Source: a bacterium
GTDB lineage: Bacteria > Patescibacteriota > UBA1384 > XYA2-FULL-43-10 > JAKAMI01
Length of the DNA: 54,566 nucleotides
NCBI GenBank assembly: GCA_021812945.1
Contig: JAKAMI010000003.1
Coordinates: 1 to 54,566 of the forward strand
Reading direction: 5' to 3'
The notes beneath the pieces are model-generated. The model was not told the origin of the DNA, searched no databases, and saw only the letters and a list, made by a program, of their open reading frames with translations. The translations under genes were made by a program, and so were the position numbers. This document shows positions 271-41,950 of the stretch, in pieces (the first letter of the stretch is position 1; every line of letters begins with the position of its first letter).

Positions 271-801
271 TTATTTCACGATCTCGGTGATGAAGTAAAA
301 TATTGCGCTCAGGACGACTAATGGCGCGATAGGCATCAGGACTTTTTGGAACGGAAACCATGGTTTTCCACCATTCCGTTTTTTGATTTCAAGATAACCG
401 ATATGACCAAAATAGAAAAAAATACTCCCCAGTCCAATTCCTACCAATGTTTTGTCTACACCCCAGAACAGCCTGTCGGACGCTCCGATAATATTTTTAG
501 CATATAGCGGCAAGATAAGGGAACCGTAAAAGAAGATTAGAACTAAAGGTACGAATCCTTTAAATTCATATTTTTTCTTCCTAATCCAATTTATCGCCCA
601 GAGCGATGAAGAGAGTAGAAACCCGCCGATCCAAAGGCCGGAGATAGTATTATCCACCCCGAATCTTTCAAGTAGGACTAGCGCGCCGCCAACTGCCAGA
701 GTGCAGACGGGGCAGGCCGCAAATGCTTTACGAGTAGAAAAAACTGCCATCAGCACGAAAATCGAGACAGCGGTCTTTGTTTTGATTTTAGTTATCGACA
801 T
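271..801 (-). CDS. Multi-pass membrane protein with N-terminal CPVC motif
   Basis: AFA-ACPVC after a signal-like segment, then ~4 hydrophobic helices; last gene of the copZ-copA-dsbA run. Confidence 0.8.
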   Translation of the reverse strand: MSITKIKTKTAVSIFVLMAVFSTRKAFAACPVCTLAVGGALVLLERFGVDNTISGLWIGGFLLSSSLWAINWIRKKKYEFKGFVPLVLIFFYGSLILPLYAKNIIGASDRLFWGVDKTLVGIGLGSIFFYFGHIGYLEIKKRNGGKPWFPFQKVLMPIAPLVVLSAIFYFITEIVK

Positions 802-812
802 TGGAATATTTC

Positions 813-1484
813 CTAGAGCGCTTTATCGATTTTGATTTTCAGGTCGTCGAAGGAAAGCGCACCCTGGAGCGTTTCGACATTTCCGTTTTTATCGACAAGG
901 TAGCTCGAAGGAGTACCCTGAATCTTTAATAATTCGCCGTCTTTAAGATCGGATTCGATTTTAGAAATATATTTTTGATTGGTTAAATCTATTTTGAATT
1001 GCTCCGTATTTAAACCGATCACGGAAGCGTACCGGATCAAATCAGCTTCAGCGAGGCCTTGGCCGTCGGGCTGGGAATTTTCTACGAGCTTGTCGTGAAA
1101 TTCCCAGTATTTGCCTTGCGCACCAGCTGCCTCGGCGGCTATGGCAGCTTCTTTGGCGGCCTTATGGAAGGGGAGTGGAAAATGTCGATAAACCCATCTG
1201 ACCTGATTGGGATATGCAGAAATGATTTTATTCAAAGTCTTGTCGTATTTAATGCAATAAGGGCACTGGTAGTCGGAGTAATCCACTATAGTGATTGCGG
1301 CGTCTTTGTTCCCTCTGACGGTGTCACTGTCTCTGAAACGCAATATTTCACTTTGTGAAACGGTTTGACCGGCATCCGGCTGAGTCGCGTTATTGGAATT
1401 TTTCTTTGCGGCGGTATAAATAGCGAACAAAACCAGCAAAGAGACACCTGCGATTAAAATAATTTTTATTGTGTTTTTCATCAT
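813..1484 (-). CDS. Membrane-anchored DsbA-family thioredoxin-fold protein
   Basis: N-terminal TM; DYSDYQCPYC, YRHFPL and IQGTP (cis-Pro) motifs. Confidence 0.92.
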   Translation of the reverse strand: MMKNTIKIILIAGVSLLVLFAIYTAAKKNSNNATQPDAGQTVSQSEILRFRDSDTVRGNKDAAITIVDYSDYQCPYCIKYDKTLNKIISAYPNQVRWVYRHFPLPFHKAAKEAAIAAEAAGAQGKYWEFHDKLVENSQPDGQGLAEADLIRYASVIGLNTEQFKIDLTNQKYISKIESDLKDGELLKIQGTPSSYLVDKNGNVETLQGALSFDDLKIKIDKAL

Positions 1485-1506
1485 AAAATACGACTAATTA
1501 TATATT

Positions 1507-4230
1507 TTAAGACCCCATGCCCGCGCTGATGCGGGCAAATTCCAAGAAGAGCAAAGTGAAGCCGGCAATCATGGCCACGGGAGCAATCAGCGACAGCCAG
1601 TTCTTCCGACCGGGTTTAAAGTTTCGAAGCAGTATCGAATTTGAAACCACTGAAATCGAGCTTAGGGCCATAGCCAGACCTGCCAATTCCGGTTTTAGGA
1701 CCAGGCCTAAGCCGATAAAGACTCTGGCGGCAATTGGAATTCCGATGACATTATAAAACAGGGCGAAGAACATATTTTGCCGGATTTTGCCCATTGTTTC
1801 TTTGGAAAGCTCAATGGCCGAGACGACGTCGCGAAGGTCATTTTTTATTATGACAACGCCGCCGGTCTCCATGGCCACATCGGTGCCCGAACCCATAGCG
1901 ATGCCTAAGTTGGCCTGGGCTAGAGCCGGAGCATCGTTTATGCCGTCGCCGACCATAGCTACCACCCGCTGTGAGCGGGAATTACTAATATCTAAATCCG
2001 AATTCCTAATCAAATCCCAGTGTCCTAAGTTCAAATCCTTCAAAAGTCCCGTTTGCAAAGCTTTGACGGCTAGAGCCTTATTTTCCGGTAAGACTTCAGC
2101 CAAGACATTGCTGATACCAACCTGCTTGGCAATAGCTTCGGCGGTTTTTTGGTTGTCACCGGTAATCATCCAAACATCAATTCCCAGATTCACCAGCTTG
2201 ACAATCGCTTCTTTGGAGGTCTGTTTGACGGTATCCGCCACAGCGATGAAGCCAAGCACCGTTTTCTGGTCTGTGAGGATCATAACCGTCTTTCCTTCCG
2301 ACTCGAGGCGAGATATGTCGTTGTTGACTAGTCCGGCATCAAGTTTAGCGATATCGGTGACCAGCTTTCTATTGCCAAAAAAATATTTTTTCTGATTGAT
2401 TAGTCCTTCGACACCGTGGCCGGGGATAGCTTTAAAACCGGTCACTTCGTCTAAGTCTACTTTTTCTTCCTCTGCTTTTTTAACAATGGCTTCCGCCAGC
2501 GGGTGCTCGGAACCGTGTTCAAGCGAGGCGGCAATCCGCAATAGCTCTTTTTGATTTTTGATTTTTGATTTTTGATTTAATGTGACATCAGTCACAACCG
2601 GCGTGCCGTTGGTCAAAGTGCCGGTTTTGTCAAAGACAATCACCCTGATTTTCTCAGCCGCTTCGAGCGGCTCGCCGCCTTTAATGAGTATTCCGTACTC
2701 GGCCCCCTTACCCGTTCCGACCATAATAGCCGTAGGAGTGGCCAGGCCCAAAGCGCAAGGGCAAGCGATGACAATAACGGCGGTAAAAGCCATCAGAGCA
2801 AAGGTGAGACCAGCTCCGAGTACAACAAACCAGATCAGAAACGTCAAAACCGCCACCCCGATGACTATTGGCACAAAAACGGAAGAAATACGATCGGCAA
2901 AGGCTTGTATCGGAGCTTTTGAACCTTGGGCGTCTTCGATTAGTCGGATAATTTGGGAAAGGGTTGTTTCGGCACCGATCTTGGTCGCCTTGAACTCGAA
3001 GCTGCCGGTCTTATTCATTGTCGCGCCGATGACCGGGTCTCCGACTTGTTTTTCGACCGGCAGACTCTCACCGGTCACCATTGATTCGTCGAGTGCTGAC
3101 GAACCCTTGGTGATAACACCGTCAACCGGAACTTTTTCACCCGGTCGAACCAGAATAATATCATCATGTAATACTTCTTCAATCGCGATGTCGAGCGTTT
3201 TACCGTCTCTTATCACCCTGGCAGTTTTGGCTTGAAGGCCCATCAATTTCTTGATAGCGTCCGAAGTTTTACCTTTTGCCTTGGCCTCCAGCCATTTGCC
3301 GAGAATCACAAAAGTGATTAAGAAGGCGGCAGTTTCGAAGTAAAGCTCGGGAATTTTCATTCCGTCGAGTCCAAAAATAGTATGATTACGTAATACAAAC
3401 AGTAAATAGTTAATCAAACTATAAAAATAGGCGGTTGAAGTACCGATGGCGATGAGCGAATCCATATTGAAAGTTTTCATCTTGAAACTTGACCAGGTGC
3501 CTTTGTAAAAACCGGCGCCGATAATGAACTGAACCGGAGTGGCTAAAATTAAGGATACGAGACCAAAATAAGGGGGAAGAGAAGCTGCCCCGGGCAAAAA
3601 CTTAAAAAAATCGAGAAACATAAAATACAGCATCGGGAACGAGAAGACCAAGCCGTAAATAAACTTTTTCTTAACAGCGTTTGTCTCCCGCTCCCGTTTT
3701 TTACGGTCGAATTCACTGTCGCTTTGGTCGATCTTGGTAGCGCTGTAACCGGCTTCTTTGACCGCATTTATCAGATTCTCGGTGTTTGTGCTATTTGAAT
3801 CATAATCTACCAAGGCTTTTTCCGAGCCAAAGTTAACGCTGGCTTGTATGACGCCGGGGACTTTTTTGATTGATCGTTCAATAATACCGGCGCAAGAAGC
3901 GCAGTGCATACCGGAAAGTGAAAGCGAAACGCGTTCCTTAATCTCCTTCGAGGTCGAAACTGACGATTTCGGTTCCGCTTTCGCCGGCTGGGAAGCCTCG
4001 TTTGATTCGATTTCGTTTGAGCTGGTAATCTTGGCAGTATAGCCGGCTTTTTTAACAGCCTCAAGAATCTGTTCATCGCTGACTGATGAGCGGGCAATTA
4101 GCCGGCCCGTACCTTTTTTAAAGTTGATGGCAATATTGCTCGCGCCGATATCTTCCAACTCGGCTTCAATAATTTTTTCGCAGGAGGAGCAATGCATACC
4201 GCTAATTTTGAGTTCGATTTGTCTTTTCAT
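1507..4230 (-). CDS. copA: Cu(I)-translocating P1B-type ATPase, two N-terminal HMA domains
   Basis: GMHCSSC/GMHCASC, TGES, CPC, DKTGT, GDGIND, YN and MxxSS motifs. Confidence 0.97.
1965..2038. repeat. Heptamer quasi-array plus short palindrome translated in frame within copA
   Basis: TAATATC TAAATCC GAATTCC [TAAT] CAAATCC CAGTGTC CTAAGTT CAAATCC (1986-2038); CCCGCT-GTG-AGCGGG (1965-1979). Confidence 0.7.
2548..2575. repeat. 4x perfect TTTTTGA tandem inside copA
   Basis: Direct reading; encodes [10 protein letters not shown] on the minus strand. Confidence 0.9.
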
Positions 4231-4237
4231 GGTGTTT

Positions 4238-4438
4238 TTAAGCTAACTGATAATCGGTACCGGCCAATGCGGCCTTGACCTGTTCTTTGTTGATTGTCTC
4301 GTTGCCTTTGATCGAAATGTGGCCGTTAAGCTCAACTTCAACACTTTCCACTCCGGCAAGTTTCTTGAGTTTAAGAGAGATCAGTTTTGTACAGGCCTCG
4401 CAGTTGATACCGGAAACCTGAAAATGACTTGTTTCCAT
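4238..4438 (-). CDS. HMA-domain copper chaperone (CopZ-like); start reassigned to ATG 4438
   Basis: GINCEAC motif; AAGGAG at 4445-4450; the longer ORF-track start runs over the promoter/operator. Confidence 0.85.
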
Positions 4439-4468
4439 AGTGTTCTCCTTTGTTAGTAAGTTATTGTA

Positions 4469-4507
4469 ACCTATACCTAGGGTATAGGTATATGAATAAA
4501 TTGTCAA
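4469..4507 (-). promoter_or_regulatory. Sigma70 promoter with overlapping CsoR-type operator palindrome
   Basis: TTGACA(4507-4502)-17-TACCCT; perfect IR ACCTATACC-TAG-GGTATAGGT (4469-4489). Confidence 0.75.
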
Positions 4508-4556
4508 GATATTCCAAAACAGAGTTTCGACATAACTATTTTAAAGAGATGAAAAA

Positions 4557-6302
4557 CTATTGGGCAATTATCAGGCCGCGGCGCGAGCCCATAGCGCAGG
4601 TAATATAGTACTTACCCGGTTTGGTAATGTTGAGTTCGAAAACAGAAGTTTTGCCTTTGGTTAGAACGTCATAGTCTTCTGTAAGTTCCGGAACGGTGAT
4701 TGAGCTCATGCAGCCGCTACCGTCTTCTTGGGCTAGGACCTCAAGGCGGACATTCCCAACCTTGACATTAAACTGATTCGGTTGGATATCGGTTTTGATC
4801 GCGTAGGTTGCCCTGATAACTTGTGCACTGGAGGTGGAAGCGGCAGGAGGGGGAGCTGAGGGGGACGGTGAGGGCTGAGGTAAGGCCGAATTTTGACCGG
4901 TATTTTGACTGGGTGTTTGATCTTTTGGTCCGCCGGAGTCGTTATCGACCACTGTGAACGAGCCGCGGTACATACCCATAGAACAGGAAAAGGGGATGAG
5001 GCCGACTTTGTCGGGGGTAAACTCGAAAGTATTTTCGCCGGGCTTAAGGAATTTGCGAATATTTAAGTCTTGAGAAAAAAGACTGGCGGCACAGGAGTTC
5101 GGATCTTTGGAATCGACAATCCATTTGACCGGAATGCCTTTTTTAACGATGAAACTGTTGGGTTGATAGCCGGATCCGGTTTGAGTCATCCGGACAATTT
5201 GGACGCCGTTTTCAGTCGTCACATTAGTATCGGCACCAAGATTTTTGGCGCTACTGAAATTTCCAAAAGATAATTTTGAGCCAAGACCGGTAAGGTTAAG
5301 GCCATTGGAAATATTCAGAATAGCCAAGATGGTGACGATGATTCCGGCAAATTTAAAGAAGCGACGGGCGAATGCGCCCTTGATGACTGAAGTCAGTCCT
5401 CCGACACCCAAAAGTCCGGGCGCGGTGCCAAGAGCGAAAGCACCCATCACAAGAGCGCCTTGCCAAAAATTACCGGTGCTCATGGCGTAAAGCTGCATCG
5501 CTTGGGTGAAGCCGCACGGCAGGAAAAATGTCAGAGCGCCGACCATCATCGAATTAGTATGGCTATACTCTTTTTCGTGATGTTTTTTTATGCCTATAAA
5601 TTTGCTGATTGAGCCGGGCAGACTAAAACTGACATTGGCCAAACGAGGCGAAAGCTCGGTTAGCTGGAGTCCGACTATCAGCATAACGATGCCGACGACG
5701 ATGGTTAAAACGCCAAGCGTCGGGCCGGAAAGTTGGAAAGCCTTGCCTATCAGTCCGATCATTCCGCCAAGTAAAAAGTAAGAGGAGATCCGGCCGATGT
5801 TGAAAAACAAGTGGGGGCGAAACTTTTGAATCGGTGTGGCTTCAGGGTGTTTCTCGCTGTGACGGGCCGAAATTCCAAGTATTAAGCCGCCGACCAGGGC
5901 CATGCAACTTGAAAAACCGGCGGTTATGCCTATCAGCACTACTACTATCAAACTGGAAGGGTTGCTAAGCGAGCCGGCGGAGAGATTGAAAACTCCGAGT
6001 CGGCTCAAAAGAAAGTAGAGTACTGCCAGGATGATGACGCATTTAGTTAGGTCTTTGTAGATTTCGGGGTTAGTAGTTATCCAGGATTTGGGCTTATCTT
6101 CCCCGACTTCATAGCCGGCTTCCAATATTTTTGAATTTACGGCACTTAAATCAAGCCGTTTTTTAGAATAAATATCGGCCAAGCGCTTCTTGTAACTTAT
6201 TTGCACGCTTTTTATCTCGGGGATCTCCTTGAGCTTGTCCTCAATCAGAATCTCACAGGACCGGCAATGCATACCTTTTATTGGGACAGTCGTTTTGTTC
6301 AT
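4557..6302 (-). CDS. HMA + TauE/SafE(DsbD_2)-like membrane domain + cupredoxin-like domains
   Basis: GMHCRSC; SSCMALVGG and LPCGFTQ motifs; FSCSMGM and ITCAMG cupredoxin-type ends. Confidence 0.88.
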   Translation of the reverse strand: MNKTTVPIKGMHCRSCEILIEDKLKEIPEIKSVQISYKKRLADIYSKKRLDLSAVNSKILEAGYEVGEDKPKSWITTNPEIYKDLTKCVIILAVLYFLLSRLGVFNLSAGSLSNPSSLIVVVLIGITAGFSSCMALVGGLILGISARHSEKHPEATPIQKFRPHLFFNIGRISSYFLLGGMIGLIGKAFQLSGPTLGVLTIVVGIVMLIVGLQLTELSPRLANVSFSLPGSISKFIGIKKHHEKEYSHTNSMMVGALTFFLPCGFTQAMQLYAMSTGNFWQGALVMGAFALGTAPGLLGVGGLTSVIKGAFARRFFKFAGIIVTILAILNISNGLNLTGLGSKLSFGNFSSAKNLGADTNVTTENGVQIVRMTQTGSGYQPNSFIVKKGIPVKWIVDSKDPNSCAASLFSQDLNIRKFLKPGENTFEFTPDKVGLIPFSCSMGMYRGSFTVVDNDSGGPKDQTPSQNTGQNSALPQPSPSPSAPPPAASTSSAQVIRATYAIKTDIQPNQFNVKVGNVRLEVLAQEDGSGCMSSITVPELTEDYDVLTKGKTSVFELNITKPGKYYITCAMGSRRGLIIAQ

Positions 6303-17478: not shown

Positions 17479-17767
17479 ATCTACAAAAGTAGAAATCTTA
17501 TGAAGGTATTAGATGTGAAGTTATTGACGACCCGAAGTACGGATCTACAAAAGTAGAAATCTTATGAAGGTATTAGATCTAGTAAAATATTGGTGTCTTC
17601 ATTTAAATCTACAAAAGTAGAAATCTTATGAAGGTATTAGATTCTTTGGCTTTGTATTTCTCTCCGATATCTACAAAAGTAGAAATCTTATGAAGGTATT
17701 AGATAGTCTGTTGAGTACGCCGATGGTTACGATCTACAAAAGTAGAAATCTTATGAAGGTATTAGAT
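17479..17767 (-). CRISPR. Type V-A CRISPR array: 5 identical 36-nt repeats, 4 spacers (28, 28, 26, 27 nt)
   Basis: Repeats at 17479, 17543, 17607, 17669, 17732; minus-strand repeat ATCTAATACCTTCATAAGATTTCTACTTTTGTAGAT ends in the Cas12a handle TTTCTAC-loop-GTAGAT. Confidence 0.97.
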
Positions 17768-18707
17768 TGGTTTTGTGATTGTAAAGATTAATTAAAAAAT
17801 TAGCATTTCCAACCGCTTTGTTGTAGACTTCAATCCCTTTTTGAGTTAAATACTCATTAAAGTTTGAAATTACAAATAAGTCTTTCTCGATTGGGTATAA
17901 CTCATTGTTTTTTTTATCTTCCAGCACAATTTTTTTACTTTTTAAATATTTATATATTCCCATATATTCGTCCATTTTGTCTGTAAACACCAATATATTG
18001 TCACAAAATCTCGGTAAATTATCATTGACAATCCTAGTAGCAACAGCAGTAGATTTTTCCTGTTTAGTGGTGTAATAGTTCTCGCGATTTTGACTAAAGC
18101 CACTAAAATAAGTAAAGAAACCTTTAAATCTTTTAATGGCATTCAAAATATCATCTTTGGACAACACCTTGTTATCTCGGGTTTCTACCCCGATAAACTC
18201 ATTGACATTTCTTCTAATATATTCCAAAATTCCAACTTCGGTTAAAACTTTAAACCCGCTTTTCTTTAAAATGTTTTTTTTCTTACTATCGAATCCAACT
18301 TTATTTTTGAACACTTCACCCACTTCACTGTAAGCCTTTTCGAATTGCATTCGTAGCTTCTTTTCTTCAATCTCTATTTGTTTATTAAGATGCTGTTTTT
18401 TATTTTTGTCTTGTTCGCTTCTCCGCTTTTCTACTAAGCTAAAATATTTGGAAAATGTAATAATCTTTGCAGTTTTCGATTCCAGTGCACCCGTAATAAA
18501 TTCCCCATGTATTTTATCAAAAATTGGTTTCAATACTTGATATGCATTTTCAATATCTTGATCAACAAGAAAAGTCTGCAACTTTTCATCGAATTGCAAA
18601 TTTTTATTAATATTTTCACGAGTTTTTCCAATCGGCCTTAACTCAAACCTAAGTGTCTTTGTCAGTGCAAACTTCTTTGTAAAAGAATGCCAAATTAATT
18701 TATTCAT
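17751..18707 (-). pseudogene. cas12a: Cas12a (Cpf1) N-terminal fragment (WED-I + REC1, 313 Cas-derived codons) ending inside the first CRISPR repeat
   Basis: FTKKFALTKTLRFELRPIGKT, KGFFTYFSGFSQNRENYY, STAVATRIVNDNLPRFCDN, YLTQKGIEVYN..INLYN; last 5 residues and TAA come from the repeat; no RuvC. Confidence 0.9.
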
Positions 18708-33356: not shown

Positions 33357-34028
33357 ATGGTGACGGCAAGAAAGCTAGTCTTTAAGGATGGGTATTATTA
33401 CCACGTTTTCAATCGCGGAGTTGATAAGCGTGATATTTGCACCTGCAATGCCGATTACAATCGAGTGATAGAGACCTTCATGTTGTACAAATATAAAGAT
33501 CCCGAGGTAAAGTATTCTCGGTTCAAGGATTATTCTGATATTAAAAAGAATGAAGTGTTTGATAAACTCAAGCAAAGGGGAGATGTTTTAGTAGATATAA
33601 TCGGATTTTGTTTGATGCCTACTCATTTTCATTTTCTCTTGAGACAGACACAATCCGGTGGCATATCCGAGTTCCTTTCAAATATTACAAATAGTTACAC
33701 CAAATATTTTAATACAAAATACAAGCGTTCGGGTTATTTATTCCAGGGAAGTTTTAAGGCAGTGTTGATCGAGGATGACCAACAATTGATGCACATATCT
33801 CGATATATCCATCTTAATCCAGTTGCGTCCAAGATCTCAACTATCGAAGATCTTTCAAAATATCCATGGTCGTCGTATTGGGAGTATGTCGGTAAGAATC
33901 GGAGCGTTTGCAATCCAGAACCAATTCTTGAACTGTTCGGTTCAGAGAAGCGGTATGTCGAATTTGTTGCTAATTATGCCGATACGGCAATACGCTTACA
34001 CGATCACAAAGATCTAGATTTGGACTGA
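33357..34028 (+). mobile_element. REP-associated tyrosine transposase (RAYT, Y1 HUH)
   Basis: YYHVFNRG, FCLMPTHFH (HUH), YIHLNPV (catalytic Tyr), YPWSSY; REP hairpins on both sides. Confidence 0.92.
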
Positions 34029-34029
34029 T

Positions 34030-34066
34030 AATTCTACTGTCCACCCGCCGGGTGGACAGTAGAATT
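34030..34066. repeat. REP palindrome right of RAYT, inverted relative to the left copy
   Basis: Perfect 17-bp stem AATTCTACTGTCCACCC-GCC-GGGTGGACAGTAGAATT. Confidence 0.92.
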
Positions 34067-34084
34067 CCGGCCTAGGGAGGGAAG

Positions 34085-34113
34085 TTGACACAAATCGGCC
34101 GGCTTGGTATAAA
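34085..34113 (+). promoter_or_regulatory. Near-consensus sigma70 promoter for the riboswitch operon
   Basis: TTGACA-17-TATAAA with TGn. Confidence 0.8.
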
Positions 34114-34139
34114 GGAGAAGATTTATTAACAATTATTTG

Positions 34140-34320
34140 TTGTGCGAAACGTCTCTTTGGAGAGACGGGGAAGTGCGGTGAGATTCCGTCACAGTCAGGC
34201 TACTGTAATATTTTTCACAAGTGGAAAATATTACCCTGAGCGATCCTGAGCTTGTCAAAGGAGAGTTGAAGGGTAATGTAATTACATAGTGAAGAATGAG
34301 TCAGAAAACCAGCACAGTCC
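34140..34320 (+). promoter_or_regulatory. Cobalamin (B12) riboswitch
   Basis: GGGAA-GTGC-GGTGAGATTCCG..ACTGT core and B12 box GAGTCAGAAAACCAGCAC closing the GTGC/GCAC helix. Confidence 0.85.
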
Positions 34321-34365
34321 GCGATGCCCGAGAGGGCGGAGTCGGATAATCCCCATGGAGGAAAC

Positions 34366-35745
34366 ATGTTTAGGTGTTTGGTTTCAGGTTCCAGAGCTAT
34401 CGTTACAGCTCTTTTTTTGATGATCGGACTGGTTTACGGCATCCAGGCGACTCAGGCCAAGATGACTGATCCGGAAATTTCAGCCTCGCTTGCTTATTTG
34501 AAATCTTATCAGAACCAGAGCGACGGGGGGTTAAAAGAGAAAGGGCAAGCGGAGTCGCAGCTAATGCAGTCGTCTTGGGCCGCCGTGGGCATCTCGGCCT
34601 CGGGGTATGATCCCGCTTCTTTCAAAACAGACGATCAAAGCCAAGACCTATTAAATTACATCAAGGTCAACTCATGCGCTCTAACCTCGATAACCGATAT
34701 CGAAAGGTCTATCTTGGCCGTGAAATCAGCCAATCAAGATCCCAAAATCTTCTTCGGCTGCGATTTGCTGGACAAGGTTACCACCGACGGGACGACGGGG
34801 AAAATAGGGCCGGATTTAATGAGCACTATCTTTGGTAGCTATGTTTACAAGGCGACCAAGCAGCCGATCAGCAACGCAACCGTCGAATATTTAAAAAGCC
34901 AACAAAAATCCGATGGCGGATTTGATCCTTCCGGTTGGGGGACAGATAGTAATACGTCATCACAAGTTGTCATATCATTGCTCGATGCCGGGCTGGACAA
35001 GGCCGATCCGGTCATACTCAAGACTGTTTCTTACCTGAAAAATTTGCAAACTGAAAACGGCGGTATCAAATATGATACCAATACCTGGACGGTAAACACC
35101 GACTCATTTTCCGATTCTTTTGTTTTGCAAATGATTTCTGCGCTTGGCCAGGATCCAAAGTCGGTCGAGTGGCAAGCGGACAGTGGTAAATCAATTCTGG
35201 ACGATCTGGATTCTCTACGCAAGCCGGATGGTTCGTATCTATACTCGGTCGATTCCTGGGGTGACGGCACGCCGGTCTGGACCACCTCGATAGTCTTATC
35301 CGGTTTGAGCGGACTGTGGTATCCGGTAACAGACCAGACGCTCGCAACTTTTCAGCCGCAAAGCAGCACGTCCGTTAGTGGCAGTTCCGTCCAAACAGTT
35401 CAACCGGTCACTCCAAAACCCAATCCGCAGCCTGTGGCTACAACCACGATCGAACCATCTCCGCCGCAAATCCAGCCGGCGATAATTCCGAAAGTATCAG
35501 CGGCTAAAAAGATTGTCGTCGTAAACAACATTTCGCCCAAGGGGGCGGCGGTAGCTCCAACCCAACCCCCAACTGTTACGGTTAACCAGACCCCGGATTC
35601 AATTCCCCAACCTCAAGTACTGGGTCAAAGCGACCAGCGGCCGGTCGGCATCAACTACCTGTGGCTGGCGATTCTTGGAACGATTGCATTTATCATCGGC
35701 GTGGTATTGTCGCTGGTTCTTCGAAGGCCTAAAAAATTGCCATAA
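34366..35745 (+). CDS. Secreted, C-terminally anchored prenyltransferase/squalene-oxidase-repeat alpha/alpha-barrel protein (transcobalamin alpha-domain-like); start ATG 34366
   Basis: GGAGG 34357-34361; QxxDGG repeats (YLKSYQNQSDGG, YLKSQQKSDGGF, LQTENGGI); Pro/Thr stalk; C-terminal TM and basic tail. Confidence 0.75.
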   Translation: MFRCLVSGSRAIVTALFLMIGLVYGIQATQAKMTDPEISASLAYLKSYQNQSDGGLKEKGQAESQLMQSSWAAVGISASGYDPASFKTDDQSQDLLNYIKVNSCALTSITDIERSILAVKSANQDPKIFFGCDLLDKVTTDGTTGKIGPDLMSTIFGSYVYKATKQPISNATVEYLKSQQKSDGGFDPSGWGTDSNTSSQVVISLLDAGLDKADPVILKTVSYLKNLQTENGGIKYDTNTWTVNTDSFSDSFVLQMISALGQDPKSVEWQADSGKSILDDLDSLRKPDGSYLYSVDSWGDGTPVWTTSIVLSGLSGLWYPVTDQTLATFQPQSSTSVSGSSVQTVQPVTPKPNPQPVATTTIEPSPPQIQPAIIPKVSAAKKIVVVNNISPKGAAVAPTQPPTVTVNQTPDSIPQPQVLGQSDQRPVGINYLWLAILGTIAFIIGVVLSLVLRRPKKLP

Positions 35746-35774
35746 TTATTTTTGATAAAAATCAATACGGAACT

Positions 35775-36527
35775 ATGAAAACCTTTCTGCTGATTTTACT
35801 TATCGTGCTTCTCCCCGGCAGTTGCTTGGCGAACCGAGCGGCCGTCGCCATACTTCACAGCACCGGAAATATCGCCTCCAAATGCGTGCCGTTTGACGAG
35901 GATAAAATGACCGGCCTGGAACTTCTGACCAGAGCCGGCCTAAACCCTGTCGCCGACCGAGGATTTATAACTGAAATAGACGGCGAAAAAGCCCAGGACA
36001 GCACGGCAATCAGCAGTTCAAATGATTACTGGTTTTATTACATCAATCCGTCAGGCGGGAACTGGGAATTTTCTCAGTCCGGAGCAGCCAATTCGACGGT
36101 TGTAAACGGACAAACCGACGGTTGGCAAATAGGCGGCAAGGCGATCTATGACGGCTTGAAAAATTTGCATTTTTCCGACATTTGCAAAGCTATAAGTAAC
36201 CCGACGGGTCCAACCCCAGCGATCGTTCCGGTTGTCCAAAACCAAGCCGCTAAACCGGCTGAAAATTCAAAAACGCAAAGTTCTAACCAAAACACGCCGG
36301 CCGCCGTATCAAAATCTTCAACCGATCCGGCTTCCGAAGCTGCAGGCGCCCAAAAAATTTCTCCGACTCAAACTCAACCCAAGGTCTTGGGCGCTGAGCA
36401 AGACAATAAATTTAACAAGTACACGACTATATTTTACATTCTCGCCGCATCTATTGCTCTAGCTCTGGGCTTGATTGTTCCCGTTGTACTAAGAAGAATA
36501 TTGGGTAAGTTGAAGCGATTTCGCTAG
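35775..36527 (+). CDS. Secreted, C-terminally anchored DUF4430-like (transcobalamin beta-domain-like) protein
   Basis: GFITEIDG..YWFYYIN..FSQSGAANSTVVNG..DGW; stalk, TM, basic tail. Confidence 0.75.
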   Translation: MKTFLLILLIVLLPGSCLANRAAVAILHSTGNIASKCVPFDEDKMTGLELLTRAGLNPVADRGFITEIDGEKAQDSTAISSSNDYWFYYINPSGGNWEFSQSGAANSTVVNGQTDGWQIGGKAIYDGLKNLHFSDICKAISNPTGPTPAIVPVVQNQAAKPAENSKTQSSNQNTPAAVSKSSTDPASEAAGAQKISPTQTQPKVLGAEQDNKFNKYTTIFYILAASIALALGLIVPVVLRRILGKLKRFR

Positions 36528-36586: not shown

Positions 36587-39500
36587 TTGATTCATCGTCT
36601 CTGGGTTGGTAAAATACAAGAAGATAAGAAACGGAGGGAGACGACCTTGGGACAACTATTGGGGATTTCGCATCGCCTGCTCCATAAAGCGACCGACAGT
36701 TTTCACGATCGGCTGGTTTTGCGGTCTCAAATTTATGCCAAATGGCACGAACAACCCCACCACCGCAAAGTCCACTTGTCGATCCTCGGTATTTATTGTT
36801 TGATTATCGCGGCTATTATAACCCAGCAATTCGCTCCGGCTTACCAACCACACTCTTTGGCCTCGTCGGGGAGCTGGAACTTTGCCAATACCACTGACTA
36901 CACCTACGACAATACAAAGGTCAACATCGCCGGCAACCAGGCGACGCTGAAAGGGACCGACGTGCAGGGAGTTAACTGGATTGCAAACGATAGTTCCGGA
37001 AATAGCTGGCCGTATCGAAAAGCAGTTACTATCTCCCATCTCAACGTCGGCTCGACACTGACGAATTTTCCGGCCAAGGTGGAGATCGCCGCCGATACAG
37101 ATATTGGTGCCCACGCCAAAAGTGATTTGACCGATCTGAGATTTACCTTGTCTGATTACAAAACCATTCTCCCTGCCGAACGCGAGACCGGAGCAATCGC
37201 TACCGGCTCGGCGTCCGGTATCTTTTGGGTGCAGGTTCCAAGTATTTTATCCACCGCCGACACTGTTATATATGTATATTATGGCAACACCTCTGCCTCG
37301 GCTCAAACCAGCCCGAGTAGTGTTTGGGATAGTAATTATAAAGGGGTTTGGCATCTGGGAGAAAGTGCTAATCCGTACAATGATTCCACAACCAATAACA
37401 ACGTTAGCACCTCTGGCACGTATCCGTCGCAGTCAGATGCAATTATTGGAAAAGGGCAATCGTATGCTAAAGCGAGTAGCCAGTATATATCGATCCCTAA
37501 TTCTGCCAGTCTTAATCCGACCGCGGCAATTACAGCACAAATTTGGTTCAAACCAGTCGCTTCGACAGCACCCTACATGCTGTTTGCAAAGGGAGACCAG
37601 CCTAGAATTTATGTAAATGATAATAGTGGAAATGTCTATTGTAATATTACAATTAACGGTATCTCGCTTGGTCTGGGGCCATTTACGGCGACAATGGGGT
37701 CTTGGAATTCAATAGGTATTCGCTACGATGGCGCGAATGTTCAAGTATATGTGAATGGTCTAGCATCGGGCAGCCCAACCGCAGCAACAGGTTCTATAAC
37801 AACAAATGCCAACCCACTCACAATAGGTTCACAAGGCGCGGTATATTACTATAACGGTTTATTAGACGAATTTAAGATTTCCGACTCCGCCCGTTCGGCC
37901 GATTGGATTAAGTTTGAGTACTATAATCAAAAAGACACCGCTGGGCAGTTGACCTTCGGGGCTCAAACAACTGTTAATCTAGTACCTGTTACCCACGCCC
38001 CGGGAACCGACTGGATCGCAACGGATACCGGTCATGATTGGCCGTATCGAAAAGCAATTACAATCTCTAAAACCAACGTCGGCTCGACACTGACGAATTT
38101 TCCGGCCAAGGTGGAGATCGCCGGTGATACAGACATTGGCGCCCACGCCAAAAGCGACCTTACAGACCTAAGATTTACGTCGTCCGGAGGTGCGACTATT
38201 CTGCCCGCCGAACGCGAGACCGGAGCAATCGCCGCCGGCTCGGCCAGTGGTATCTTTTGGGTACAGGTGCCGTCGATTTCTTCAACTGCCGACACTATTA
38301 TATATGTATACTACGGCAATGCTTTCGCCGCGGCCCAAGCCAATCCGAATGGAGTATGGGACACAAACTACAAAGCGATTTACCACCTGTCTGATCCGAC
38401 CAATCCAACGGATTCGACCGGAGTAAATAACGGGACCAATTACGGATCGACTGCGACCGCAGGAAATAACGACGGCGGGGCGGCATTTGTCGCTTCAAGT
38501 TCTCAGTATATAAGCATTCCCAACAACGCATCATTGCAAAACACATCTTTTTCAATTGATATGTGGATGCAAACATCAGACGCTAACAGTTTGCAAGTTT
38601 TCGCTGGTAAAGCTGACGGCTCAAACGGTTACGCCATAGCATACCACGGAAATAATGCTCCGGGTAATTTTGGAATGTACGCGATGGTACAAACCGGCGG
38701 AGTTGAAAAAGATGCCTTTTCAACTTTAGGCGCTTTGTCTATAAATACCTGGTATCATATTGTGGGAACGTATGATGGCACAACAATAAAACTTTATAGA
38801 AATGGGGTCCTAGACAGCAGCACTTCGGTTTCGAACGCTTTGGGGACAAGCGCTTCAATCCTAACCATTGGCAGACATGCTCCGACTCCATATTATGTGA
38901 GCGGAAAAATTGACGAAGTTCGTATTTCCAACTCTGCCCGCTCGGCCGATTGGATCAAGTTTGAGTACTACAACCAAAAAGATGCGGCTGGCCAGTTGAG
39001 TTACGGAAGCCAATCGACGCTTGGAGGATATTTTGACTACACCGCCGCCAATGTCACTGCCCAAAGCTACAATACTGTTTCGGCTTTTTCGGCCACGACC
39101 TCCGGCACCGGCTTGGTTAAGTTTCAGGTCTCGCCAAATAGCGGGACAACCTGGTACTGGTGGAACGGTTCGGCCTGGGCAGCCACAACCAATGGTTCTT
39201 GGGAGGCGAATACGGCCGCTGACGTTAACACTCATTTTGCCGACGGGTCGTTTAATTCCCTCGGCACCGCCCCCAAAACTTTCAAGTGGCGGAGCTTCTT
39301 TACCTCGGACGGCTCACAGCAGCCGATTCTCTCCGGTATCTCGCTGACCTATCTCTGGGACACTTTGGCCCCGTCGAACCCGACGCTTGTTCCAACGAGC
39401 CAAAAGGTCGGAGGAACTGCTATCGCTACGGGCAATTTTTACAATTATGCCAACCCCTACTACGGCTGGACGGCTGTGACCGATGTGGCCAACGTAGGCG

Positions 39501-41950
39501 AGACACCCTCGGGCACGGCCGGCTACTATATATATTATGGAACAGATAATACGGCTTTGCCGACTTCTGCCCGAGGTATGGCAAATGAACTTGGCGGCAC
39601 CGGTATTCATTATCAAACTACCACCGGATTTGAAGTCGGAGTCGATTCGACGGTTATGACGACCGGTAATACATATTACTTAAGAGCTCAAACCAAGGAT
39701 AATGCCGGTAACATATCCGCCGCCGCAACTTTATTTACCTACAAGTACGATAGTACCGCTCCCAGCTCTCCCGCCTACGTGTCGGTTTCGCCTTCGGGCT
39801 ACTCGCGCACCAACTCTTTCACTTTCTCCTGGCCGGTCAGTGGCGCCGACGGCCCGTCGGATCCGGGGGTAAACCCGTCCGGACTTCTAAAATATCAATA
39901 CCAGCTCGGCACGGCCGGCTGGGTTGATGTGCCGGGGAACGCGACAACGGCTAGCATCGCTCCGACCAATCCGGCCTACAGAACCGGCGCCAATGTTTTT
40001 GCTTTGCGCTCCGTTGATGTCGCCGGCAATTTGGCCACCCCGGCCCAGGTTACTTTCTATTTCAATAGTTCCACGCCGACAGCACCGACAAACCTAGCCG
40101 TCGCGCCTTCGACGCCGTCCAGTAGCAACTCCTTCGCTTTTTCCTGGGGGTTGCCGCAAACCTATACCGGCTCAATCGCCGGTTACTATTATTCGATCAA
40201 CGCCTTGCCGACGCTTGTAAATGCCACTTTTACAGCTTCGACTTCGCTCGCCGCCGCTCCGTTTGCGACCCAGCAAGGACAAAACACTTTTTATATCGTG
40301 GCCAAAGACGATGCCGGAAATGTTGATTTTGATTCCTGCAACGCCATTTCCGGTAATCCGACCACCGACGGTTGCGCCAAGGTCAACTTTACCGCCAACA
40401 CTTCGGCGCCCGGGATACCGACCGGACTGCAGGCAGTTGATACCAGTAACCGCGACGCTGCGCTTTATTCCGATGTTCTAAAATGGATTGCACCGGTTAG
40501 CCAAGGCACCGGTTTTGCCGGCTATTCGATTGAACGATCAATTGACAACATCAATTTTGCTCAAGTTGCGACAACCTCGGGGACTTCCTACGTTGATGAT
40601 AATTTGCAGTCTCAGCTTTACTATTATCGTCTGCGTTCAAAGGACAACGCCAGCCAATACAGCGCCTATTCGGCCGTTGTCTCTATCACCCCCACCGGCC
40701 GGTATACCACACCGCCGGCGTTAACAGACGGCCCGACGGCCGCACCCAAGGCATTTTCGATCAGCGTCTCTTGGCAAACTGATCGGGAATCTTCGAGTTT
40801 TGTCGAGTACGGGCTGACCGCCAACACGGTCGGCAAAGAAAGCGGCGGCAAAACCATTGGCGCGCTGGAGCAATCCAAAAAGCACGCCGTCACCGTCGAC
40901 GGCCTGCAGCCGGACACCTTGTATTATTACCGTTCGGTCTGGCTGGACTCTGACGGCAACCGCGGCCAGAGCGATGTCTTTAATCTTCGCACCAGCCCCG
41001 CTCCCTCGATAGCCGAAGTCAAGCAATCGAATGTCACGCTTAATTCGATGCTGATCACCTGGCAGACAAATGTTGTGGCTAACTGCGCCATAATCTACGG
41101 GCCATCAACCGCTTACGGCGGCAGCACTTCAGAAATTTCCGGCGTGCTTGCAGCCAGCCATTCTTTGAATCTGACCGGTTTGAACGACAGCACGACTTAT
41201 CACTTCAAAGCATCTTGTACCGATGCCGATTCAAACCAGTTTATCTCCGACGATTATTCGCAGCCAACCTTGGTCCGGCCGATTATTTCAAACCTCAAAT
41301 CGGAGCCGGTCAAAGACGCCCCGACCACCACCATCCGATTCACTTTTTCCACCAACATCCCGACTACAACTATCGTTTCTTACCAAAACGGTACCGGTTC
41401 AACTTTGACCCAGTCAAATGCCGAGCCTAAAACCGACCACGACATCCAAGTCAAAGATCTGGCCGATAAAACCACCTATACCTTTCAGGCCAGCGGAGTA
41501 GACCAGCACGGCAACACCGTAGCCTCAGACAAAGTTTCTTTTGCCACCCCCAACGATACCCGTCCCCCCAAGGTCTCCAACCTCTCCATCGAAGTCAAAG
41601 CTCAAGGTTTCTCCTCGGCTCAGAAAGCTCAAGTAGTTGCCTCTTGGACTACCGATGAACCCTCAACCAGCTGGTTGGAGTACGGCCAAGGTATCACTTC
41701 AAACGATTATCCCAGCAAGACCTCGGAAGATCAGACTCTAACCAACAGCCATGTCATCATTGTTGGAGAACTTGAACCAAGCAAGATCTACCATCTAAGA
41801 GTCGGTTCCCGTGATGCTGCCGGCAATGCCGGTTACTCCTCCGATACCACTACCATTACCGGTAAGATTCAAAGATCAGTCATCGATATCATCATCACCT
41901 CCCTCCAGAAGAGTCTGGGCTGGCTGTTCGGGCTGAGTTTCGGGAGGTAG
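36587..41950 (+). CDS. Giant surface protein: 2x (DUF2341 + LamG-like) modules followed by FN3/Ig-like repeats
   Basis: N-terminal TM; duplicated WPYRKA.TI..LTNFPAKV..DLRFT..FWVQVP..IYVYYGN..VWD.NYK modules; LamG YYNGLLDEFKIS and GKIDEVRIS; Thr/Ser-rich FN3-like tail. Confidence 0.85.
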   Translation: MIHRLWVGKIQEDKKRRETTLGQLLGISHRLLHKATDSFHDRLVLRSQIYAKWHEQPHHRKVHLSILGIYCLIIAAIITQQFAPAYQPHSLASSGSWNFANTTDYTYDNTKVNIAGNQATLKGTDVQGVNWIANDSSGNSWPYRKAVTISHLNVGSTLTNFPAKVEIAADTDIGAHAKSDLTDLRFTLSDYKTILPAERETGAIATGSASGIFWVQVPSILSTADTVIYVYYGNTSASAQTSPSSVWDSNYKGVWHLGESANPYNDSTTNNNVSTSGTYPSQSDAIIGKGQSYAKASSQYISIPNSASLNPTAAITAQIWFKPVASTAPYMLFAKGDQPRIYVNDNSGNVYCNITINGISLGLGPFTATMGSWNSIGIRYDGANVQVYVNGLASGSPTAATGSITTNANPLTIGSQGAVYYYNGLLDEFKISDSARSADWIKFEYYNQKDTAGQLTFGAQTTVNLVPVTHAPGTDWIATDTGHDWPYRKAITISKTNVGSTLTNFPAKVEIAGDTDIGAHAKSDLTDLRFTSSGGATILPAERETGAIAAGSASGIFWVQVPSISSTADTIIYVYYGNAFAAAQANPNGVWDTNYKAIYHLSDPTNPTDSTGVNNGTNYGSTATAGNNDGGAAFVASSSQYISIPNNASLQNTSFSIDMWMQTSDANSLQVFAGKADGSNGYAIAYHGNNAPGNFGMYAMVQTGGVEKDAFSTLGALSINTWYHIVGTYDGTTIKLYRNGVLDSSTSVSNALGTSASILTIGRHAPTPYYVSGKIDEVRISNSARSADWIKFEYYNQKDAAGQLSYGSQSTLGGYFDYTAANVTAQSYNTVSAFSATTSGTGLVKFQVSPNSGTTWYWWNGSAWAATTNGSWEANTAADVNTHFADGSFNSLGTAPKTFKWRSFFTSDGSQQPILSGISLTYLWDTLAPSNPTLVPTSQKVGGTAIATGNFYNYANPYYGWTAVTDVANVGETPSGTAGYYIYYGTDNTALPTSARGMANELGGTGIHYQTTTGFEVGVDSTVMTTGNTYYLRAQTKDNAGNISAAATLFTYKYDSTAPSSPAYVSVSPSGYSRTNSFTFSWPVSGADGPSDPGVNPSGLLKYQYQLGTAGWVDVPGNATTASIAPTNPAYRTGANVFALRSVDVAGNLATPAQVTFYFNSSTPTAPTNLAVAPSTPSSSNSFAFSWGLPQTYTGSIAGYYYSINALPTLVNATFTASTSLAAAPFATQQGQNTFYIVAKDDAGNVDFDSCNAISGNPTTDGCAKVNFTANTSAPGIPTGLQAVDTSNRDAALYSDVLKWIAPVSQGTGFAGYSIERSIDNINFAQVATTSGTSYVDDNLQSQLYYYRLRSKDNASQYSAYSAVVSITPTGRYTTPPALTDGPTAAPKAFSISVSWQTDRESSSFVEYGLTANTVGKESGGKTIGALEQSKKHAVTVDGLQPDTLYYYRSVWLDSDGNRGQSDVFNLRTSPAPSIAEVKQSNVTLNSMLITWQTNVVANCAIIYGPSTAYGGSTSEISGVLAASHSLNLTGLNDSTTYHFKASCTDADSNQFISDDYSQPTLVRPIISNLKSEPVKDAPTTTIRFTFSTNIPTTTIVSYQNGTGSTLTQSNAEPKTDHDIQVKDLADKTTYTFQASGVDQHGNTVASDKVSFATPNDTRPPKVSNLSIEVKAQGFSSAQKAQVVASWTTDEPSTSWLEYGQGITSNDYPSKTSEDQTLTNSHVIIVGELEPSKIYHLRVGSRDAAGNAGYSSDTTTITGKIQRSVIDIIITSLQKSLGWLFGLSFGR

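Follow-up and report, generated by a model that had tools for sequence, protein, structure and literature searches.

A cobalamin riboswitch and a pair of membrane-tethered proteins related to SCO2321/SCO2322 in a patescibacterial contig: a candidate surface B12-capture system

What is the role of two membrane-tethered proteins whose genes lie directly behind a cobalamin riboswitch? The question is raised by one locus of the window, which is the whole stretch of DNA analysed here, 54,566 nucleotides of contig JAKAMI010000003.1 (GenBank assembly GCA_021812945.1) from a bacterium of the Patescibacteriota. On its forward strand, a promoter and the riboswitch precede gene A, which encodes an alpha/alpha toroid protein, and gene B, which encodes a small beta-domain protein (Table 1). 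A probability of about 65% is given to the reading that the locus is a cobalamin-repressed two-gene operon and that its two anchored surface proteins together make up the part of a B12 uptake route that captures corrinoids outside the cytoplasm. This capture role, which had been proposed in a first-pass annotation of the DNA, is well supported by context, namely by the riboswitch-controlled operons of energy-coupling factor (ECF) transporters in which relatives of the pair are found, twice together with a cob(I)alamin adenosyltransferase. Relatives are cited below by locus (L) or protein (P) number.

The riboswitch and the gene pair in related loci

The aptamer is of the RF00174 type, begins twelve bases 3' of the promoter and lies in sense orientation between the promoter (34085-34113) and the Shine-Dalgarno sequence and ATG of gene A (34357-34368). 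In a local scan with permissive filters it scores 30.6 bits (E = 5e-6), which is 0.9 bit short of the Rfam gathering score of 31.5 bits, and for this reason a scan of the window at the gathering threshold reports tRNAs only and not the riboswitch. Orthologous aptamers occupy the same position, directly 5' on the coding strand of related loci, and score 43.1 bits in L003/L005, 40.0 in L001, 39.2 in L009, 31.8 in L007, 29.9 in L002 and 29.6 in L006. A riboswitch is present in every related locus with enough upstream DNA, including L001, L002, L003 and L005. Among 29 metagenome loci, which were found through the beta-domain by a pattern scan with alignment A3, 21 reach the gathering score, four come within 2 bits of it (L006, L026, L034 and L032) and four lack the upstream DNA. 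Seven aptamers of the close clade were aligned, and compensatory double changes are found in 13 of the 29 consensus stem pairs, in P1, P3 and P6, while the conserved core GGGAA..GGUG..AUUCC..CAGU...CUGUAA and the B12 box AGUCAGAAAACCAGC are invariant in all seven loci. Because it has the same place in all relatives with enough upstream DNA and its stems covary, the window element is, as judged by comparative sequence analysis, a real cobalamin riboswitch despite its sub-cutoff score, as first annotated.

A chance or decayed match in front of genes for constitutive surface proteins would agree with the sub-threshold score, missed by the default scan, and with the expression platform, for which simple folding gives neither a clear terminator nor a helix that sequesters the Shine-Dalgarno sequence (z = -1.2, no significant structure). 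This explanation retains hardly any probability, as the match covers the model from end to end, the core and the B12 box are unchanged, the position is that of all orthologous loci, several of them at 39-43 bits, and three stems carry compensatory changes.

At 34393-34419, 27 nt into the coding sequence of A, there is a hairpin that resembles a terminator and has a T-run behind it (AGAGCT-8 nt-AGCTCT TTTTTTG). It could be a chance feature or a part of the expression platform.

Genes A and B are separate and in this order in the window, L001 and L009, and they are fused in one open reading frame (ORF) in P0002/L005, P0004/L002, L006, L007 and several other top matches. These natural fusions are found in the closest relatives, one of them in a metagenome-assembled genome (MAG) of Candidatus Saccharibacteria. 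A MAG of this group is the sole match among species-representative genomes, which makes an origin of the window in the candidate phyla radiation (CPR) plausible without proving it. A and B are regarded as a functional pair because their adjacency is conserved and natural gene fusions exist. At the fusion junction, the first transmembrane (TM) anchor is followed by a short basic loop, a second hydrophobic segment and the beta-domain, so both domains of the fusions should stay extracellular. The second hydrophobic segment ends in a signal-peptidase-like site directly ahead of the conserved ANRAG start of the beta-domain, and these junction sites resemble those of the split forms, for example PAATS/ANRA and YAYA/AQRAG, with the slash at the putative cut (P0002, P0004, P0012, P0013, P0025 and P0028). 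The fused proteins are probably cut back into two chains.

The link to B12 transport comes from 18 more distant loci, in which the pair is followed by, or divergent from, genes for an ECF S component, a CbiQ-type T component and an ATP-binding cassette (ABC) ATPase. The beta-domains of these distant loci have about 25-33% identity to B, and the order is riboswitch, toroid (or a second beta gene), beta-domain, ECF S, CbiQ-type T and double ABC ATPase. All loci of this distant group that reach a few hundred bases past the beta gene contain ECF genes, and in L004 and L027 a PduO-type cob(I)alamin adenosyltransferase gene follows. The window-like clade is formed by the window, L001, L002, L003/L005, L006, L007 and L008/L009, with 39-44% beta-domain identity. 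Its loci have the riboswitch and the pair, and no ECF T or S gene was found within the available flanks of six related loci, L001, L005, L006, L007 and L009 among them. Generic ABC ATPases are encoded near L006 and L009; a role of theirs in B12 transport was weighed and dismissed, as they have no CbiQ-type T partner and lie in a MacB-like context.

The same context bears on the ligand. The pair may instead capture another tetrapyrrole or a corrinoid precursor, such as heme or cobinamide, and not complete B12; an alpha/beta pair of an ECF operon of Lactobacillus sakei was modelled with heme, with heme uptake reported (10.1101/864751), and Burroughs et al. allow 'B12 or its precursors' (PMC1796856). 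Against this stand the cobalamin-class riboswitch before essentially every locus of the family, a B12 aptamer control that is not expected of a heme system, and the linked adenosyltransferase of L004 and L027. A corrinoid ligand is favoured because of these riboswitches and the adenosyltransferase, and capture of heme or of a precursor is considered quite unlikely.

The two proteins and their resemblance to transcobalamin

Proteins A and B share one layout, which is composed of a signal peptide, a globular domain, a stalk of about 70-110 residues rich in Pro, Thr, Gln, Ser and Ala, a P-x-VLG motif, a TM segment and a basic tail. In A, the signal peptide spans residues 1-31, the toroid about 32-320, the stalk 321-431 and the TM segment 432-452, and the tail is RRPKKLP. 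In B, the signal peptide spans residues 1-19, the beta-domain 20-139, the stalk 140-216 and the TM segment 217-239, and a basic tail follows. The signal peptides, the C-terminal TM segments and the paired conserved cysteines of both proteins fit a surface location, and the DsbA/DsbD-type genes of the same window count in its favour. The extracytoplasmic, membrane-tethered location of both products is supported by these sequence features, and the description of two separate secreted proteins of the same layout in the first-pass annotation is upheld.

Both halves and many relatives (P0002, P0004 and P0015-P0045) carry a conserved (V/I)-x-G-(A) motif, which often reads P-x-V-L-G, at a distance of 10-25 residues from the C-terminal TM segment and basic tail that follow it. 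The tripartite shape of VLG motif, TM segment and basic tail recalls sorting signals of the sortase and exosortase types; no known model matched it as a sorting signal.

The mature domain of A has two conserved cysteines and three strict repeats of the QxxDGG type, read from the sequence. A matches the Pfam model SQHop_cyclase_C above its cutoff (8.6e-10, 38.6 bits), which puts it in the alpha/alpha toroid group of terpene cyclases and prenyltransferases, and a PDB sequence-profile search with A returns squalene-hopene cyclase repeats (7e-12). Structure comparison was made with an AlphaFold2 (AF2) model of a homologue and not of the window protein: the toroid of the P0002 fusion is 49% identical to that of the window and is modelled with a predicted local distance difference test score (pLDDT) above 90 over residues ~40-320. 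The alpha/alpha barrel that had been read from the QxxDGG repeats is consistent with all of these results. In a Foldseek search with the P0002 toroid, transcobalamin is retrieved from rank 15 on (7qbg_A, E = 1.7e-5, TMt 0.46; 2bb5_A, E = 2.4e-4). The modelled resemblance of A to the transcobalamin alpha-domain is genuine as regards the fold, though nonspecific.

Class II terpene cyclases and prenyltransferase beta-subunits (8paj, 8pak, 6sbb and 1gsz) are the best sequence and structure matches of the toroid and share with it the QW-like QxxDGG repeats. The class II terpene cyclases differ from A, which lacks the DxDD motif and is a secreted protein on a stalk, controlled by a B12 riboswitch. 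Neither DxDD nor the other catalytic motif, DDxxD, was found in A. A is very unlikely to be a terpene cyclase because these motifs are absent and the protein is secreted and stalk-tethered, and an enzymatic role of A was rejected for the same reasons. A related explanation is that A and B are a B12-independent substitute for a B12-dependent envelope function, or that A modifies terpenoids or glycans as an enzyme outside the cytoplasm, in either case with expression only at low B12. B12 riboswitches do control B12-independent isozymes such as MetE, and the similarity of A to squalene-hopene cyclase repeats would agree with an enzyme. The lost motifs, the position of A on a stalk outside the cell, distant from prenyl-diphosphate substrates, and the presence of relatives inside ECF importer operons with an adenosyltransferase make this explanation highly improbable.

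A scores 37.3 bits (E = 1.5e-9) with the NCBIfam model SCO2321_fam (NF053823), far below the curated cutoff of 300, and the toroid of L004 scores 93 bits. A otherwise fits the SCO2321 type, being a secreted alpha/alpha toroid protein with a membrane anchor, encoded directly 5' of an SCO2322-type gene.

The beta-domain of B has conserved cysteines at positions 37 and 137, and in its family two cysteines and several Trp, Tyr and Gly residues are nearly invariant. Homology searches of the word-indexed type gave almost no matches, whether the query was B alone or a four-sequence profile. An exhaustive HMMER search with a four-sequence domain profile gave 2,554 representative clusters at E <= 1e-3 over positions 1-120, of which 1,216 reach E <= 1e-10, and the window-type domain profile matches P0011 (PF28005) at 4e-19. 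Among the 150 nearest relatives of B, 146 match SCO2322_fam (E <= 1e-3), fused relatives match SCO2321_fam too, and relatives of the SCO2322 family generally share the series of signal peptide, domain, stalk, TM segment and basic tail. B is, by these profile matches, a divergent SCO2322-family domain. The window proteins are distant relatives and not curated members of the two families, because their scores lie far under the cutoffs of the SCO2321 and SCO2322 models.

The relation of B to the beta-domains of vertebrate transcobalamin (TC), intrinsic factor (IF) and haptocorrin (HC) was approached through DUF4430 and by alignment of profiles. Within the family of B, the Pfam model matched most often is DUF4430 (11 of 150 relatives at E <= 0.5), and a bacterial DUF4430 structure, 3u7z, was retrieved by a haptocorrin-like query. 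With hhalign, the family alignment A8 and the TC/IF/HC beta-domains (A11, whose reference sequences were taken from printed search alignments) give P = 0.0032 over 53 co-linear columns, which include GF-x-x-I-x-G, YW and GA-x-Y-x-x-DG-D/E and fall in the C-terminal half of the TC/IF/HC beta-domain, the half that touches the ligand; for alignment A3 and A11 the value is P = 0.03. When profiles of B were searched against the PDB sequences, the only matches were to low-complexity stalks. AF2 models of the beta-domain have the order beta-beta-alpha-hairpin, as expected of the transcobalamin-like SLBB clade, at low confidence (pLDDT 40-80), and the beta-domain part of the P0002 fusion model is poor. 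The link of B to DUF4430 and to the transcobalamin beta-domain is only suggestive.

The proposed capture of corrinoids

The corrinoid-capture reading would work as follows. At low cytoplasmic cobalamin, the riboswitch would permit expression, and cobalamin would switch the operon off, so that A and B are produced in equal amounts when B12 is scarce. Both proteins would be exported, anchored by type-I C-terminal TM segments and held off the membrane on their stalks. A would act as a terpene-cyclase-like alpha/alpha toroid that has lost its catalytic motifs, and B as a small beta-domain of the SCO2322 type with a disulfide, which is probably distantly related to the DUF4430/SLBB domain of the C-terminal half of transcobalamin. 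The two would bind the corrinoid at the surface, and the simplest order is that the beta-domain binds first and the toroid closes over it, as in intrinsic factor and transcobalamin. The captured corrinoid may then be passed to a membrane importer, which in distant relatives would be the ECF transporter encoded immediately downstream. In the window and its closest relatives, this importer would be encoded elsewhere or be of another kind, and it should exist somewhere in the genome because the riboswitch implies that B12 reaches the cytoplasm.

Several results weigh against the capture reading. Among the larger ORFs of the 54.5-kb window there is no ECF, BtuCD or TonB component and no B12-dependent enzyme; the absence of a nearby transporter had already been read from the window, and none was found in the six related loci either. 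B scores 21.2-21.3 bits (E ~4e-4) with the Pfam DUF4430 model (PF14478), below its gathering score of 23.8, and 21.5 bits (E = 2.5e-4) with SCO2322_fam (NF040672), whose curated cutoff is 85. The HH probability of the alignment of A8 with A11 is 9.9%, and the AF2 model of the window B, built from a four-sequence alignment, has a pLDDT of 60.7 and gives no match in Foldseek (best E = 0.6). A has no match to PF01122 (Cobalamin_bind) at E <= 1, its PDB profile matches are to squalene cyclase-type proteins only and not to transcobalamin, and the best Foldseek matches of the P0002 toroid are not transcobalamin but the single-barrel type II terpene cyclases 8paj and 8pak (E ~1e-7, TMt 0.60). In L011, L014, L015 and L019, two tandem beta-domain genes and no toroid gene lie behind the riboswitch. 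The authors of the L. sakei work argued for heme and not for B12 (10.1101/864751), and no binding data for any SCO2321/SCO2322-type protein were found in the literature.

These results divide two earlier claims. The DUF4430-like character of B is favoured by the frequency of this model in the family and by the hhalign P value of 0.003, yet the score of B itself stays under the gathering score, and the HH probability is only 10%. The transcobalamin-like alpha half stands as a structural match (E = 1.7e-5), but it ranks behind the terpene cyclases and has no counterpart in sequence.

The loci with two beta genes also bear on the role of the toroid. B may be the sole corrinoid binder, with A as an interchangeable scaffold or co-receptor that serves, for example, in cell-wall spacing or docking, and without any clamp. 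The beta-domain is the constant element of the family, the four loci named above lack a toroid, L033 has one beta-domain gene straight after the riboswitch, with ECF genes next, and the likeness of the toroid to terpene cyclases is no smaller than that to transcobalamin. On the other side, adjacency or fusion of toroid and beta-domain is the majority arrangement, the riboswitch in front of the pair always governs the toroid as well, and transcobalamin is among the significant structural matches of the toroid. A role of B alone is judged unlikely on this balance. Within the capture reading, a transcobalamin-like heterodimeric clamp, in which A and B would close around the corrinoid, is the less certain part, because the loci with two beta genes show that the toroid is dispensable in the family. 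The proposed order, with the beta-domain binding first, follows the analogy of intrinsic factor fragments, which associate only when cobalamin is present.

A more specific proposal, possible but doubtful, is that a clade of the CPR, similar to Saccharibacteria, displays on its surface a free-standing 'split transcobalamin'. Its two halves would come together around B12 only if the ligand is there, with no dedicated ECF transporter encoded alongside. The proposal would include a new C-terminal anchoring or sorting signal (P-x-V-L-G, ~12 residues, TM segment, basic tail) and fusions recut at the internal signal-peptidase site. If true, an episymbiont could use this module to obtain B12 straight from the surface of its host.

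The closest known system is the SCO2321/SCO2322 pair (NF053823, NF040672; PF28005), which usually heads ECF operons and has the same toroid-then-beta order, a signal peptide and a C-terminal TM anchor on both proteins and a cobalamin riboswitch upstream. The window pair differs from it in its scores (37 against 300 and 21.5 against 85 bits) and in having no adjacent ECF genes, and the window clade, unlike most SCO2322 members, has no Cys-rich insert (C-x-C-x-C). By these comparisons, A and B are a distant variant of SCO2321/SCO2322. No functional study of the two families was found in the literature. Burroughs, Balaji, Iyer and Aravind predicted in 2007 that secreted transcobalamin-like SLBB (beta-grasp) proteins are B12 scavengers, with fused or adjacent alpha/alpha toroids and sometimes a second paralogue, next to CbiO/CbiQ and in organisms without B12 synthesis (PMC1796856). 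These predicted features recur in the B family of relatives. The anchor of the window proteins is a C-terminal TM segment with the VLG motif and not LPXTG, and riboswitch control, which is present here, is not mentioned in that work. In L. sakei, an ECF operon encodes separately what were called 'alpha and beta transcobalamin subunits', and these were assigned to heme uptake (10.1101/864751). By its description, this pair is like A and B in having the halves as separate genes, with a proposed heterodimer and a tetrapyrrole at its interface, and unlike them in its place inside an ECF operon and its assignment to heme.

Vertebrate transcobalamin, intrinsic factor and haptocorrin (PDB 2bb5, 2pmv and 4kki) combine, like A and B, an alpha/alpha toroid with a small beta-domain. 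The likeness consists of the Foldseek matches of the toroid (E from 1.7e-5 to 4e-4) and of the co-linearity of B with the C-terminal half of their beta-domain; no significant sequence similarity of A or B to either half of the three proteins was found. The vertebrate proteins are single soluble chains, whereas the window encodes two separate TM-anchored chains, and even in the fused relatives a pair of TM segments stands between toroid and beta-domain. The BtuG and BtuH proteins of Bacteroidetes are riboswitch-controlled, high-affinity surface corrinoid binders that feed BtuB. They follow the same capture logic with unrelated folds (beta-propeller and others), as outer-membrane lipoproteins with a TonB-dependent partner, of which the window has no counterpart.

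The concept of a B12 binder made of a toroid and a beta-grasp domain (2007), the split alpha/beta subunits of L. sakei and the names SCO2321 and SCO2322 are already known. Family-wide riboswitch control, fusions with an internal pair of TM segments, a transporter-less clade in CPR-like genomes and the VLG motif before the anchor were not found in the literature. ECF-type B12 transporters have, to our knowledge, no established binder outside the cytoplasm, and the delivery of B12 to importers in Gram-positive-type and CPR bacteria is poorly understood. A large named pair, SCO2321/SCO2322, with at least 2,500 beta-domain clusters, is now tied to cobalamin riboswitches and ECF importers and is a concrete candidate for the missing B12 capture step. 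How ultra-small vitamin-dependent bacteria import captured B12 is a question posed by the clade without a nearby transporter, to which a Saccharibacteria MAG belongs. The fusions are ready constructs for work on cooperative B12 binding, which bears on the proposed bacterial origin of the animal transcobalamins.

Promoter, neighbouring genes and other features

Table 1. Positions of the promoter, riboswitch, genes and motifs of the A-B locus in the window
Feature	Position	Strand	Basis or remark
-35 hexamer TTGACA	34085..34090	+	read from sequence; 6/6 consensus match
Extended -10 TGgTATAAA	34105..34113	+	read from sequence; 17-nt spacer after -35
Cobalamin riboswitch aptamer (RF00174-type)	34125..34331	+	full-length Rfam model match, positions 1-189
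Shine-Dalgarno GGAGG	34357..34361	+	read from sequence; 4 nt 5' of gene A ATG
Gene A, membrane-tethered alpha/alpha toroid protein, 459 aa	34366..35745	+	Pfam, NCBIfam, AF2 homologue model, Foldseek
VLG motif of A (PQPQVLGQ)	35617..35625	+	11 residues before TM segment; recurs in relatives
Gene B, membrane-tethered beta-domain protein, 250 aa	35775..36527	+	NCBIfam, Pfam, HMMER, hhalign
VLG motif of B (TQPKVLGA)	36384..36392	+	10 residues before TM segment

The promoter had been described as near-consensus, and direct reading of the sequence confirms this: 11 of 12 core positions match, and the -10 element is of the extended type. A consensus promoter scan does not return it because the scan demands T as the last base of the -10 hexamer. 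Gene A starts at the ATG at 34366, and its homologues begin at the equivalent Met; an alternative start at 34324 would give a protein of 473 aa. The two genes are co-oriented and separated by 29 nt.

Upstream of the promoter, an IS200-like Y1 transposase gene lies within 33357-34067 (Pfam Y1_Tnp, 4e-9). A perfect 17-bp inverted repeat, aattctactgtccaccc-gcc-gggtggacagtagaatt, is found at 34029-34067, between this gene and the promoter and directly adjoining the latter. An identical A protein is encoded on 11 contigs of several assemblies, with the IS200-like gene upstream every time, and this gene also precedes the A-B pair in five other assemblies. Directly 3' of B, at 36587-41950 (+), a giant surface protein of 1787 aa is encoded, with two units of DUF2341 plus Laminin_G_3 and with repeats of the fibronectin/purple-acid-phosphatase-N type. 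This gene is probably outside the operon, because the gene downstream of B is a different one, on the opposite strand, in two other assemblies.

A copper/redox cluster is found at 271-6302 (-). Its products are a thioredoxin of the DsbA type (813-1484), a P-type ATPase for heavy metals that contains two HMA domains (1507-4230) and a membrane protein that resembles DsbD and carries fused cupredoxin and HMA domains (4557-6302). Among the related loci, L012 has a group II intron (domains D1-D4, with the catalytic core) at 3231-4000 (-), upstream of the B12 locus, and L015 has a glycine riboswitch at 3887-3989 (-).

In the region 17479-18707 (-), an array with a 64-bp period and 4.6 copies adjoins an ORF of 318 aa. 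Read as its reverse complement, the array unit has ATTTCTACTTTTGTAGAT at its end, which resembles a Cas12a-type CRISPR repeat. The ORF (17751-18707) matches the Pfam REC1 recognition-lobe domain (2.7e-29), and array and ORF together look like a truncated Cas12a remnant with a mini array.

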